NCBI GenBank assembly: GCA_964196535.1
Contig: CAXMUG010000076.1
Location: 1 to 49,535 of the forward strand
Source of the DNA: an uncultured Mycobacterium sp.
Lineage (GTDB): Bacteria; Pseudomonadota; Gammaproteobacteria; UBA4575
DNA length: 49,535 nt
Reading direction: 5' to 3'
Shown here: positions 44,589 through 49,535 of the stretch, in pieces
Position numbering within the stretch: position 1 is the stretch's first letter
Layout: the number at the start of each line of letters is the position of its first letter
Made by a program: the position numbers and the translations under genes
The notes under the pieces: generated by a model
Seen by the model: the letters and a program-made list of their open reading frames with translations, nothing else
Told to the model about the DNA's origin: nothing
The model's database searches: none

Positions 44589-46421
44589 TTATAAATCATA
44601 AATCCACGGCAATAGCCATGAATAACTTAGCCACATAATTATCGTGAGTGGTGTGCCGACTTTTACAAAATCCATAAATTTATAACCACCAGCATTCATG
44701 ACTAACAAATTGGTTTTGTAGGCCATCGGCGTGATGTAGCTCATATTGGCGCCAAATAATACAGCCAAGATAAAAGGAGCTGCAGGTTGATCTAGCTGTT
44801 GAGCAATGCTTATCGCAACAGGTGTACCGATTACTGCAGCTGCATTGTTGGAAACAATATTAGTAAGTAATGCCATTAGTAACATTAAACCGCTTAGTAC
44901 AATCGGTGCACTTGCGCCCGCTGTGAGATAAAGAAATACACCGGCTAAGTATTCTGTGCCACCTGTAGCCAGTAGTGCAGCACCCATAGCTAAACTTGCA
45001 ACAACGATCAGAACAATAGGTGTGCTGAGTGCTTGTGTAGCATCACGCCAGTTTAAACAGCCCGTAACAATCAACAACAACACCCCGCACACCGCACTTA
45101 TGGCAATGGGCAGAATACCGAGTGCAGCAGTTGCCACTATGGCAATCATGATCCATAAAGCTAGCAGCGCTTTAGCAGAATGTGGTAGATCTTCTGTGGA
45201 GTCTAATACTAAAAGTTCACCACTTTGTTTCAGTTTTTTCAGTGCTTCGGCTTTACCTTGTACCAATATAATATCGCCAGTACGTAACCAGACTTCACGT
45301 ACACCTGAATGCAGTGTGTCGATGGTTGTACCTGCGTGGTGTAATGCAAGTGGGATAAGTTGATATCGGTCATGAAAACGCAAACGCGAAAGCGTTGTGT
45401 TTTCTAGCGGTGAGCCTTGTGAAACGACAATTTCTGCTAATTGTTGTTGTGAGGTGGACTTTAATTCATCTCCTGCGATGATTTCATTGTTTTTAGAATA
45501 AAGTGTCGCAGCTAGGACGTCTTCATATTCTTTTAATTCTTTTGGTGTGTCGCGAACGAACAAGCGATCACCTGCTTTAATTTCTACATCCGGCAATAAT
45601 GAAAGTTGTGTATCTTCGCCGCGTTGAATACGTTCTACCTTCATCGCGCCACTGGTGAGCTTGATGAGTTGCGCTAGAGTTTTTCCTACTGCACGACTTT
45701 CTTCGGGTATGTGTAACTGTGCTAGAAATACGCGTGGAGAGGTATCGGATAAAGGTGTGTCACGTTCAGAAACAATAAGTGGTGCAATCAGCCACAAGTA
45801 TGCAATGCCAATTACCGATACAATACTTGCTGGCAGTATAAAATCAAACATAGAAAATTTTTCCACACCCATGTCAGAGGCAACGGATACCACTAGTAAG
45901 TTGGTAGAAGTTCCTATAGTAGTGCACATGCCGCCCACCAGTGTGGCAAAGCCCATTGGCATTAACACACCGGAAGGTGAGCGATTAGTTCGTAGTGAAA
46001 CGCTCACTAAAATGGGCAGCAGCAGAACGACTACAGGAGTGTTATTAATAAATGCACTTAACACTGCGCCAATTATTAGCGTTAATAACAAAGATAGTAA
46101 TGGGCTGACTCGCCAGAGTTTTGCAAGTGAACGGCCGATGGGCTCGAGTGCGCCGGTACGTACTAATGCTTGCCCAGCAATCATCAAAGCGCATACCGCT
46201 ATTAATGCCTCGTGACCAAATCCGGAGAATAGTTCTATGGAGTGGAATTTGTTTCCATCAATTTGATATGGAAATAGCTCAAATCCAACCGCCAAGATTG
46301 CGATAACCAATAAGCTAGAAGTTTCTAGTGGTATATTTTCTCGCGTGAACAGAATTAAGGCGATAATGGTTAACAGCAAAATGCCTATGGCATGTGGGTC
46401 TGGGCTGGCTGGGAAAGGCAT
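44589..46421 (-). CDS. SLC13/DASS-family permease with two central TrkA-C (RCK_C) domains (YfbS-like)
   Basis: 610 aa. TM-rich N- and C-terminal halves flank a soluble ~170-aa region with RCK_C-like repeats (GKTLAQL..., VERIQRGED; LENTTLSRLRFHDRYQLIPLALHHAG). Confidence 0.8.
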   Translation of the reverse strand: MPFPASPDPHAIGILLLTIIALILFTRENIPLETSSLLVIAILAVGFELFPYQIDGNKFHSIELFSGFGHEALIAVCALMIAGQALVRTGALEPIGRSLAKLWRVSPLLSLLLTLIIGAVLSAFINNTPVVVLLLPILVSVSLRTNRSPSGVLMPMGFATLVGGMCTTIGTSTNLLVVSVASDMGVEKFSMFDFILPASIVSVIGIAYLWLIAPLIVSERDTPLSDTSPRVFLAQLHIPEESRAVGKTLAQLIKLTSGAMKVERIQRGEDTQLSLLPDVEIKAGDRLFVRDTPKELKEYEDVLAATLYSKNNEIIAGDELKSTSQQQLAEIVVSQGSPLENTTLSRLRFHDRYQLIPLALHHAGTTIDTLHSGVREVWLRTGDIILVQGKAEALKKLKQSGELLVLDSTEDLPHSAKALLALWIMIAIVATAALGILPIAISAVCGVLLLIVTGCLNWRDATQALSTPIVLIVVASLAMGAALLATGGTEYLAGVFLYLTAGASAPIVLSGLMLLMALLTNIVSNNAAAVIGTPVAISIAQQLDQPAAPFILAVLFGANMSYITPMAYKTNLLVMNAGGYKFMDFVKVGTPLTIIMWLSYSWLLPWIYDL

Positions 46422-46588
46422 GATGGGTCCAGGTTAAGTCATATTTAGAGGTATTATGTCGAATAGAATAGTGAGACTACCTAGAAATTTACCCATTTTT
46501 AACTGCTATAGGTGATTGGTTTCATGCCGCGCATTCACTATAATTCTCCACGTTTAAATAAGGTATCAACAACAAATTAGGAGTTTGT

Positions 46589-47074
46589 GTGAAGGATAAT
46601 CAGTTTGCAACGACATTGATGACTATTGTAGGTGTGCTAATAGCGCTCACAGTCGTTATTTTAGTTATTTCAAATACACTCACAAGCACTGATTATTCTG
46701 AAGATAGTCTTGTGCAGGGAAATATTGAAGAACGAATTAAACCCGTTGGCGCTCTAGCTATCGCAGGTGTAACTCCGGTTAATGCAACTGAAAGCACTGA
46801 TGATACAAACGTAGCAGCTAATGACACAGGAGCTAGCAAAAGCGCTGAAGAGCTCTACACAGGTTGTGCTGCATGCCATGACTCAGGTGTGCTTAATGCA
46901 CCTAAACTAGGTGATAATGCAGGATGGGGTCCACGTGTAGTGAAAGGTGCTGATGCACTTTACTCTAGCGCTATAAATGGTATTGGTGGAATGCCAGCTA
47001 AGGGTGGTCGTGCGGATTACTCGGATGACGACATTAAGAAGGTCGTTGACTACATGCTGGAATCGGTTAAGTAA
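46589..47074 (+). CDS. Membrane-anchored cytochrome c5-family monohaem cytochrome
   Basis: 161 aa with a GTG start after an AGGAG RBS. N-terminal TM anchor, CAACHD haem motif, and GGMPAKGG. Confidence 0.85.
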   Translation: MKDNQFATTLMTIVGVLIALTVVILVISNTLTSTDYSEDSLVQGNIEERIKPVGALAIAGVTPVNATESTDDTNVAANDTGASKSAEELYTGCAACHDSGVLNAPKLGDNAGWGPRVVKGADALYSSAINGIGGMPAKGGRADYSDDDIKKVVDYMLESVK

Positions 47075-47111
47075 GCTAACTATTTGTTGCTTAATCTAAT
47101 TGCTATTGAGC

Positions 47112-47544
47112 CTACTTGTTTAGTGGGCGATCATATTGTCGATAACTAATTGCCTCACAGAGGTGATTAGTTTCGAAGCTATCCGAAATATCTAGATCTG
47201 CAATGCTTCGCGCGAGTTTAAGTGTGCGGTTGTAACCACGTGCAGATAATCCTAGTTGTTCAAATGCTTTATCCATGAGTTTGTCGCAGTCGTCATTAAG
47301 CGCACAAAATTTCTCAATTTCTTTGTTGGTCATATAGGCATTGGGTTTATGTTGCCGATTAATTTGCAGCTCTCGCGCAGCGCAAACTCTCGCTTGTACG
47401 TCATGACTTGTTTCGTTGCTATTGGGTGTTTTTTTTAAGCTGTTCTTTAGCAGCACGCGGTACATCAATGTGTATATCTATTTGATCCAGCAAAGGCGCA
47501 TCCATACCCGTTTGTGCACGAGAATAGGCTGTAGCAAGACTCAT
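47112..47544 (-). pseudogene. comM: comM/yifB (Mg-chelatase-like competence protein) remnant with a large internal deletion plus a homopolymer frameshift
   Basis: From ATG 47544 the frame reads MSLATAYSRAQTGMDAP (the ComM N-terminus). This is fused directly to LLDQIDIHIDVPR, a motif normally about 370 residues downstream. The frame breaks at an 8-nt A run (T8 on the + strand, 47429-47436). The shifted frame continues with the ComM C-terminal domain (...DVQARVCAARELQ...GLSARGYNRTLKLARSIADLD...HLCEAISYR). Confidence 0.8.
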
Positions 47545-47586
47545 TAGAAATTATTTTTTTATGAGTTATTACTTATTGTAGTTTAT

Positions 47587-47850
47587 TTATTTTTTATTAA
47601 TTTCTTCTAGGTTGTGAATTCGTTGCTCTAGTTCTTTAACGCGTTGCTGGCTTTTTGATAGCAGCATAACTTGCACATCAAATTCTTCACGAGTAACTAG
47701 GTCTAGGCGTTGAAAAGCGCCTTCAATGGTAGCGCGTGCATTTTTTTCCAAACCTGCTTTTGCCGTTTTTAAATCTTCAGGTACGGCTGAGCTAATTTTG
47801 CGCACGATCTCGCTTACTGTTTGGTCTAAAGCCCCAGTGTCAAATTTCAT
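47587..47850 (-). CDS. ubiK: Ubiquinone biosynthesis accessory factor UbiK (YqiC/BMFP family)
   Basis: 87 aa coiled-coil protein with LDLVTREEFDVQVMLL motif and AGGAGA RBS. Adjacent to comM as in other gammaproteobacteria. Confidence 0.8.
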   Translation of the reverse strand: MKFDTGALDQTVSEIVRKISSAVPEDLKTAKAGLEKNARATIEGAFQRLDLVTREEFDVQVMLLSKSQQRVKELEQRIHNLEEINKK

Positions 47851-47905
47851 TCCATCGTCTCCTATGTCTAAGTCACTAGTTTAACGGAATCATCAAAAAA
47901 AACAG

Positions 47906-47956
47906 CGCACCTTAATAGTGCACCCTTGCTTTTTAAAGGTGCATTATTTTGGTGCA
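47906..47956 (+). promoter_or_regulatory. Two candidate NtrC-type enhancer sites
   Basis: cGCACCTTAATaGTGCA (47906-47922) and TGCAttATTTTGGTGCA (47940-47956). Each matches 10 of 12 specified positions of TGCACC-N5-GGTGCA. Confidence 0.5.
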
Positions 47957-48003
47957 GTTCATTTATATGTAAATAACTTATTGATTTATATGTATTAAAA
48001 AGT

Positions 48004-48019
48004 TGGCACGTGCCGTGCA
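48004..48019 (+). promoter_or_regulatory. Sigma-54 (-24/-12) promoter upstream of the TorF-family porin gene
   Basis: TGGCACGTGCCGTGCA. GG at 48005-48006 and GC at 48017-48018 are separated by exactly 10 nt. The consensus is TGGCACG-N4-TTGCA. It lies 60 nt upstream of the porin ATG. Confidence 0.7.
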
Positions 48020-48078
48020 TTAGTACATGCAGTAGTAAAACTTAAATATAAACAACGCCCTTTTAGGGAGGAAATTAG

Positions 48079-48738
48079 ATGAATAAGAAACTACAGAACT
48101 TTGGTACTTCTACCGTTCTGGTAACCGTTCTGGCGGCAGGCACAGCAGTGCTATCCACTACCGCATCAGCAGAAGCGACGCTTTCAGGAAACGCAGGGAT
48201 TCTGTCTGAGTATATCTTTCGAGGCATCGTTCAAAACGATACCGCATCGGGTAACGGTGGCATCGATTTAGAAGTCGGTGGTTTTTATGCAGGCACTTGG
48301 ATTGCTGATGTGGATGATGGCGTTGAGTACGACCTCTATGCAGGGTATGTACATGAATTCTCAAATGGATTTTATCTGGGCGCGGGTGGTACCAGTTACC
48401 AGTATTCCGACAGCTTTGATAATGAATACAACGAAGCGAATTTTTATGCGGGTTGGTCTAACGATCTATGGTCATTAGATCTTGAATACACCAAAGGTGA
48501 TTACAACGGTGATTTTGTTGATGACAACGGCAACATTGAAGGCGATGAGTATGACTTTATCGCTGCAACCGTTGGTTGGAATGGTGTGTATTTAACCTAT
48601 GGCGCGTTTGGTGATGATGCAGACGATCAACTCGGCGAATATTTTGAACTTGGATATGGTTTTGAAGTTGCAGGTTTTGATGTCACGGCAGCCGTTGTGC
48701 AGACCACCCGCAAGCGCCGGCGTCCATTGATTCATTGA
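48079..48738 (+). CDS. TorF-family putative outer-membrane porin, 3' end replaced at a composition junction (~48685)
   Basis: Signal peptide, then ATLSGNAGILSEYIFRGIVQNDTASGNGGIDL...YAGTWIADV...EYDLYAGY, typical of the TorF/TIGR02001 beta-barrel family. The last ~15 codons (..QTTRKRRRPLIH) are GC-rich and lack a beta-barrel C-terminal signal. AGGGAGG RBS. Confidence 0.7.
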   Translation: MNKKLQNFGTSTVLVTVLAAGTAVLSTTASAEATLSGNAGILSEYIFRGIVQNDTASGNGGIDLEVGGFYAGTWIADVDDGVEYDLYAGYVHEFSNGFYLGAGGTSYQYSDSFDNEYNEANFYAGWSNDLWSLDLEYTKGDYNGDFVDDNGNIEGDEYDFIAATVGWNGVYLTYGAFGDDADDQLGEYFELGYGFEVAGFDVTAAVVQTTRKRRRPLIH

Positions 48739-49294
48739 GCAGACGGCACATCTCGGCGTGCTCTGCGTCGGTTGGCAGGCGTCCGGCCTTCGCGTCCTCC
48801 AGTCCGAGGACCGAGATCAGGATGGGGCTGATCGGAACGTAGGGCACGATGTTCATTGCTTTCGGCGTGCGTTCAACGCTATCCATATATTCTGGGAACG
48901 TTTCCCAATCCCACGGCATCCCGGCTTGCATCGACGCCAACGGTATCGCCTCGACCCGGGTCATCGACAGCATTGAACGTTCACGCGCCTCCGGCGCCAC
49001 CGGCGCGAAGCCAAACCCGCAATTACCAATGACGACCGTGGTGATGCCGTGCCAACTGGAGATGGAGCAATAGGGGTCCCAGAAAACCTGCGCATCGTAG
49101 TGCGTATGCAGATCGACGAAGCCCGGGGCCACGATCATGCCGTCGGCGTCGAGTACCTTCGTCGCGCGGTGCGCTTCAATATGGCCGATCTCAGCGATGA
49201 CACCATCTTTGATCGCGATGTCGCCACGATAGCGCGGCGAGCGCGATCCATCAATTACCATACCGCCTTTGATCAGCGTATCGAATTCTGCCAT
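48683..49294 (-). CDS. N-acyl-D-amino-acid deacylase-family amidohydrolase, N-terminal ~200 aa only (truncated at the junction)
   Basis: From ATG 49294 (AAGGA RBS) the frame reads MAEFDTLIKGGMVIDGSRSP...APGFVDLHTHYD...GITTVVIGNCGFGFAP, the D-aminoacylase-type metal-binding N-terminus. Family members are about 480-580 aa. High GC. Confidence 0.7.
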   Translation of the reverse strand: MAEFDTLIKGGMVIDGSRSPRYRGDIAIKDGVIAEIGHIEAHRATKVLDADGMIVAPGFVDLHTHYDAQVFWDPYCSISSWHGITTVVIGNCGFGFAPVAPEARERSMLSMTRVEAIPLASMQAGMPWDWETFPEYMDSVERTPKAMNIVPYVPISPILISVLGLEDAKAGRLPTDAEHAEMCRLLNESMDAGACGWSAQRLP

Positions 49295-49535
49295 GGGTTC
49301 AGTCCTTATTCGGTTATCGAGATGCGGACCCACGATTATCCCATGGCGTAACCGCTGGGCAAAGATGCGCTCACGAATTACCCTATATCTGTAGAGGCCG
49401 AGGGCGGTAATGCGACGGCGTAGCGTGCTGAGGCGGAACGACGGTGGATCCACGTTAGCTTAACAACGCCCCCCGTGAGCGCAGTTTAGCGATTTCCAAT
49501 GCGTTATTTGGCGGTTCCGGTGCGCTCGATTGGGG

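Follow-up and report, generated by a model that had tools for sequence, protein, structure and literature searches.

The right-hand end of the 49,535-nt contig analysed here (the whole stretch of DNA, referred to below as the window) is very probably an artefactual chimera, in which DNA of a second, GC-rich gammaproteobacterium was joined to the porin gene of the host at a stretch of 19–20 nt common to both. In the window, a metagenome contig, the host would be an uncultured gammaproteobacterium (about 41% G+C), and positions 48706–49535 would come from the second, GC-rich gammaproteobacterium inhabiting the same marine sediment. A truncated porin, a truncated amidohydrolase and a missing glnK-amtB pair would all result from this chimeric join.

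Composition break and truncated genes

The G+C content was 40.9% in positions 1–48690 vs 58.9% in positions 48691–49535, and a two-segment likelihood fit over the window placed the change point at 48682–48688, which makes the break stepwise rather than gradual and falls inside the interval 48680–48700 suggested by the earlier note. Its hand counts of about 37 and 65% G+C were reproduced by direct counting of the two 60-nt lines concerned (36.7% for 48421–48480 and 65.0% for 48781–48840). Other 845-nt windows of the contig varied from 35.4 to 46.2% G+C (sd 2.2%), leaving the tail about 8 sd out. The tetranucleotide comparison proposed in the same note also separated the two sides, with an L1 distance of 0.72 between the tail and the rest of the contig as compared to 0.33 ± 0.03 (at most 0.48) for windows of the same length taken from the left side. 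The two genes also differed in the G+C content at the third codon position (GC3), with 39% for the porin vs 71% for the amidohydrolase; all three measures, i.e., G+C, tetranucleotide content and GC3, shift at the join. The features around it are as follows:

48079–48705, plus strand: genuine part of the TorF-family (Gcw_chp) porin gene, codons 1–209 of 247 (assigned by PF09694, TIGR02001 and related loci)
48686–48705, no strand: crossover interval CGGCAGCCGTTGTGCAGACC, the sole stretch present in both parental genomes
48706–48738, plus strand: spurious terminal part of the porin ORF (RKRRRPLIH and the stop codon), an antisense, out-of-frame reading of the amidohydrolase gene
48686–49294, minus strand: first 203 codons of an Amidohydro_3 gene (PF07969) of the other, GC-rich gammaproteobacterium
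49295–49535, no strand: upstream region of the amidohydrolase gene of the GC-rich organism, up to the contig end (similarity to OFTM106, locus L012, extends to 49387)

The porin ORF (48079–48738) had profile matches to PF09694 and TIGR02001 with its N-terminal part only (positions 3–101 of 230 and 8–143 of 244, respectively) and did not match the family over its full length; in its native form the organism's gene is intact and encodes 247 aa. The comparison was made with ten other contigs of the same organism carrying an identical UbiK, taken from ENA, Logan and NCBI assemblies. All nine of the ten that reach the site encode the 247-aa porin. The native protein is identical to the window ORF through residue 209, after which (codon 209, T, 48703–48705) the window ORF departs from it and lacks the native C-terminal 38 residues, including the conserved ...HRSFDIMKWGS end. 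The ending RKRRRPLIH, by which the truncation had been noticed before, was found neither in any of the native porins of the 90%-identity cluster nor in the native DNA; the truncation itself is real for this contig and consists in the loss of native sequence after codon 209. At the nucleotide level, the nine related contigs with sequence in this region were 99.6–99.97% identical to the window, each alignment ending exactly at 48705. Past this position the native DNA reads GACTTAGGTGATGATCC..., encoding ...AAVVQT-DLGDDPADLTSGGSTGDGDETSAYVSIHRSFDIMKWGS, and its next 830 bases have 38.9% G+C. An exact search of the JGI metagenome contigs with the native 39-mer spanning the join gave no match.

Downstream of the porin, glnK (P-II) and amtB were present in six of the ten related contigs, i.e., in every one extending far enough, and the longest of them also carried speE and speA beyond amtB. 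The expectation that glnK-amtB normally follow the porin was therefore correct, and the pair is absent from the window because the contig ends; both genes are located on another contig of the same run. Judging from the gene order of these relatives, the real locus of the organism is ubiK, the 247-aa porin, glnK and amtB.

A remnant of comM/yifB is located further upstream at 47112–47544 on the minus strand. Residues 14–40 of a 41-aa ORF (47419–47544) match positions 374–400 of the YifB profile, albeit weakly (E = 0.038), and an overlapping 118-aa ORF in another frame (47112–47468) matches the YifB C-terminus (profile positions 391–499; Mg_chelatase_C). From these matches, approximately 350 internal codons appear to have been deleted, together with a frameshift. 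The same pair of ORFs (41 aa plus 114 or 117 aa) was present in ten of ten related contigs, and because of this recurrence the remnant is regarded as a fixed pseudogene of the lineage and not as an artefact.

The convergent GC-rich gene belongs to the Amidohydro_3 family and is named N-acyl-D-amino-acid deacylase by JGI. Its PF07969 match covers only profile positions 1–86 of 472: the window holds residues 1–203, including the region of the HxH metal-binding motif (DLHTHYD), and the catalytic domain is incomplete, the closest homologue having about 577 aa. The earlier estimate of about 200 out of some 500 expected residues was thus right with respect to the truncation and slightly low with respect to the full length. 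The fragment remains family-like to its final residue, ...GACGWSAQRLP (DAGACGWSAQRLP), after which the homologues continue with PTGPAAVQ.DYDGTPM..., and its apparent stop codon at 48683–48685 is host porin sequence read backwards.

The taxonomic placement of the right side, another of the checks suggested beforehand, gave as the closest genome match the MAG 'Gammaproteobacteria bacterium OFTM106' (JAJFJQ010000008.1, locus L012) with 98% amino acid and 84% nucleotide identity. Its amidohydrolase has 577 aa and lies in the middle of a 222-kb contig with about 55% G+C. The nucleotide similarity between OFTM106 and the window ends at 48687 on the left and at 49387 on the right. For both sides of the join, the taxonomic level reached was that of 'Gammaproteobacteria bacterium' MAGs. 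Members of the amidohydrolase family occur very widely among proteobacterial MAGs from marine and freshwater habitats, and OFTM106 alone has at least two paralogues (L012 and L024, the latter in JAJFJQ010000030.1) with 98 and 85% amino acid identity to the fragment.

Contigs from four runs (X21, X22, X11 and X23) covered parts of the region 49295–49535 with strain differences. Upstream of the amidohydrolase start, the X11 and X23 contigs carried a different stretch of 87 nt in place of 49388–49474, and those of X21 and X22 differed from the window over its final 15 bases. Such a pattern suggests either a strain-variable intergenic region or errors at the contig end.

Parental sequences at the crossover

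Logan contigs of public runs were aligned to the window; among these runs, X1 and X2 belong to a sediment study from 2018, X4 to the 2024 study that includes the source run and X11 to another study from 2024. The host-side contigs of X1, X2, X4 and X11 matched the window through 48705 and then read GACTTAGGTGATGAT..., while the GC-rich contigs of X11 and X21 (a seawater run outside the set of 20 in which the left side was recorded) matched it rightwards from 48686/48687 and ran unbroken leftwards past the join. To the left of 48686/48687 the latter contigs read ...GGGGCCAGACGT(T) (CAAGCTGCGCCCCAGCGGGGCCAGACGT(T)), encoding the expected ...LPTSGPAGAQLD, and their minus-strand translation in this part, LP-TSGPAGAQLD, is a family-typical amidohydrolase continuation. 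Each side of the join is therefore uninterrupted elsewhere: the host side in the nine related loci and in X1, X2, X4 and X11, the GC-rich side in X21, X11 and OFTM106. Since each parental sequence runs natively past the join in other contigs, the two parents share only positions 48686–48705.

The length of the shared stretch depended on the GC-rich strain, being 20 nt against the X21 type and 19 nt against the X11 type, which has a T at 48686; given the stop codon at 48683–48685, it is at most 22 nt. It corresponds to codons 203–209 of the host porin on the plus strand and to codons 197–203 of the amidohydrolase on the minus strand, and the 20-mer has 65% G+C. The strain SNP at the wobble position 48686 (T in X11 instead of C) accounts for the end of the alignment at this point and for a unitig break in X4. 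Because GC-rich contigs of both X4 and X11 ended at 48687 in the alignments, recurrent formation of chimeras in several libraries was also considered and ruled out, as the X11 contig continues natively for 58 nt to the left.

Occurrence of the join and its probable origin

The exact chimeric porin occurred only in the deposited contig and in a 3046-nt Logan contig of run ERR13301389, which corresponds in extent and coordinates to the run coded X3. Over 45795–48840 this Logan contig agrees with the window at 100% identity, ending 135 nt past 48705, and from the identity we infer that X3 was the source run of the deposited contig. X4 and X8, sister runs from the study that includes X3, lacked the join, as did X1, X2 and X11; all five were native at this site.

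The coverage of the two sides in X3 was discontinuous, in agreement with what the comparison proposed in the earlier note was meant to reveal in a chimera; the depths given here are contig means, not per-base read depths. On a JGI relative that is 91.6% identical to the native locus (L092) and served as a reference for the X3 downstream contigs, the chimeric X3 contig (depth 6.86) stopped at the join, and a separate X3 contig of 1580 nt with a depth of 9.4, starting about 78 nt after the join, carried the native 3' end of the porin into the glnK-holding downstream region. The fraction of sampled 31-mers seen at least two times in the run was only 0.30 for the GC-rich tail vs 1.00 for the left side; by a Poisson-model estimate, the former value implies a mean k-mer depth of about 1.1. 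The only other X3 piece of the GC-rich side had a depth of 2.4. With the native continuation at 9.4x and the GC-rich tail sparse, the X3 host population has the normal locus, and the GC-rich DNA in the source sample is that of a separate organism of much lower abundance.

These depths bear directly on the reading of the tail as a fixed, very recent foreign insertion (a genomic island or HGT fragment) in the host chromosome, for which the sharp step in G+C and codon usage and the truncation of two genes would speak. The junction of an integrated element is expected at host depth, but here the native continuation stood at 9.4x next to 6.9x on the left and the GC-rich side at about 1–2x, and all nine related contigs reaching the site were native. 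The observation made earlier that repeats, att-like sites, tRNA and integrase are lacking at the junction also held: no tRNA was found anywhere in the window, the repeats near the junction were only short and at chance level with no flanking direct repeats beyond chance, and the 830-nt tail, consisting of the 5' part of the amidohydrolase gene and its upstream region only, contained no mobility genes. A fixed insertion was therefore rejected on account of depth and of the native contig in the same run, its probability being practically negligible. A real but rare recombinant is a different matter: here, GC-rich DNA would have entered the porin in a minority of the S3 host cells by illegitimate recombination at the 19–20-nt stretch, displacing the 3' end of the porin. 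Illegitimate recombination is known to proceed through microhomology, the join-spanning 31-mers occurred at least two times in the run, and a low-frequency variant would likewise produce a low depth on the right side together with a coexisting native allele. Yet the join was found in one run and not in X4, X8, X1, X2 or X11, the join-bearing contig stops 135 nt beyond the crossover, that is about one read length, and there was neither a second junction nor a mobile-element gene, att site or tRNA. Furthermore, the event would have destroyed two genes and cut the link to glnK-amtB, and free contigs of the GC-rich organism occurred both in this sample and in its sister samples, providing the template for a hybrid formed in vitro. 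We consider such a recombinant improbable; if true, it would be a snapshot of illegitimate recombination between lineages before its removal by selection.

The remaining question concerns the role of the assembler. A stretch shared by two genomes, located at a contig end beside low coverage, is the classic setting for a k-mer chimera, and the join does lie in a sequence common to both genomes, at the end of the contig and adjoining low coverage, so that the two genomes might have been connected in a de Bruijn graph by a common k-mer, no hybrid read being involved. However, the 19–20 nt (at most 22 nt) shared here are too short for this at k = 31, yet the Logan contig carries the join within a 3046-nt match of 100% identity. 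The Logan assemblies were made with k = 31 and 31-mers seen once per run were discarded (PMC12424806), which also argues against an error of the assembler alone. Hybrid reads must therefore exist, and every join-spanning 31-mer is seen at least two times in X3; for this, a single short chimeric fragment read by two overlapping mates would suffice, as would PCR duplicates. The stop of the join-bearing contig about one read length past the join fits such a short chimeric fragment. A pure k-mer graph artefact was rejected on the basis of the k = 31 Logan contig and is very improbable. Of the two readings offered in the earlier note, the assembly chimera was thus upheld by the intact parents found elsewhere, the shared 19–20 nt, the restriction to a single run and the native depth, and the recent foreign DNA was not; the first was also refined, in that the join is not purely an error of the assembler, being present in a k = 31 assembly of the same run.

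Under the preferred reading of an artefactual chimera, the two genomes share the identical 19–20-nt stretch by chance, and in one run at least two reads or mates would carry a hybrid molecule crossing over inside it. This molecule may have arisen while the library was being amplified, most likely by template switching or by annealing at the 20-mer with 65% G+C. The host path is broken 75–80 nt downstream of the join, next to a porin loop that varies by indels, leaving no competing extension. The assemblers may have been led by the hybrid reads into the GC-rich genome, whose thin coverage gave out at 49535, the end of the contig. Strain heterogeneity breaking the true path would thus have made the hybrid reads the only available extension. 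Consistent with this, the native contigs of X4 and X11 stop at +75 and +79 after the join, and the porins of the cluster vary by indels in a loop 14–20 codons past it, e.g., SGGS-----TGDGD vs SDGGNLSTPPGDGD.

The C-terminal loop is indel-variable among strains, whose porins range from 244 to 252 aa, and occupies +36 to +80 of the native sequence after 48705 (about 9066–9110 in L002 and 2050–2093 in L092). In three runs the assembly breaks off at +75 to +80 from the join, and in two longer contigs (L007 and L009) the sequence ends some 260 nt after it, adjoining SNPs at approximately +263 and +279.

Chimeric contig ends combining different genomes are well known in metagenome assemblies. The window resembles such inter-genome chimeras of metagenome assemblies and MAGs, which stem from misassembly or contamination, in the abrupt change of composition and coverage, the position at a contig end and the location of the join in a short sequence common to two co-occurring genomes, with the parents intact elsewhere and no reproduction across samples. 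Unlike in the usual chimeric contigs, the join was already in the reads, so that the link was not created by the assembler, which carried a hybrid molecule forward. The similarity to PCR template-switch chimeras includes a crossover within a perfectly shared, fairly GC-rich 19–20-mer able to prime a heterologous template, low abundance and occurrence in a single library; other routes in vitro, such as annealing in the course of end repair or ligation, would leave an identical picture, and a PCR origin is only the probable one. Genomic islands and products of homology-facilitated illegitimate recombination have in common with the window the step in G+C and codon usage and the microhomology at the junction. 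The differences are that mobility genes, att sites and tRNA are lacking here, that the junction is not at host depth, and that the native allele occurred both in the sample itself and in every related contig reaching the site.

Consequences for the deposited sequences

The MAG to which the contig belongs is publicly deposited, and the last 830 bases of the contig are, with the high probability stated above for the chimera, contamination from another organism. Two artefactual protein records derived from it are found in the public protein collection: a porin of 219 aa with a false C-terminus, with NCBI and Logan as sources, and an amidohydrolase of 203 aa with a false stop. As both records trace to the 49,535-nt contig, the chimera has spread into databases.

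The deposited contig should be trimmed at 48705, and the significance of the finding is one of data hygiene only. It provides a worked example of a hybrid read promoted to a contig exactly where strain variation broke the true path. For the organism itself this means that horizontal gene transfer, a loss of glnK-amtB or a truncated porin inferred from this contig would mislead.
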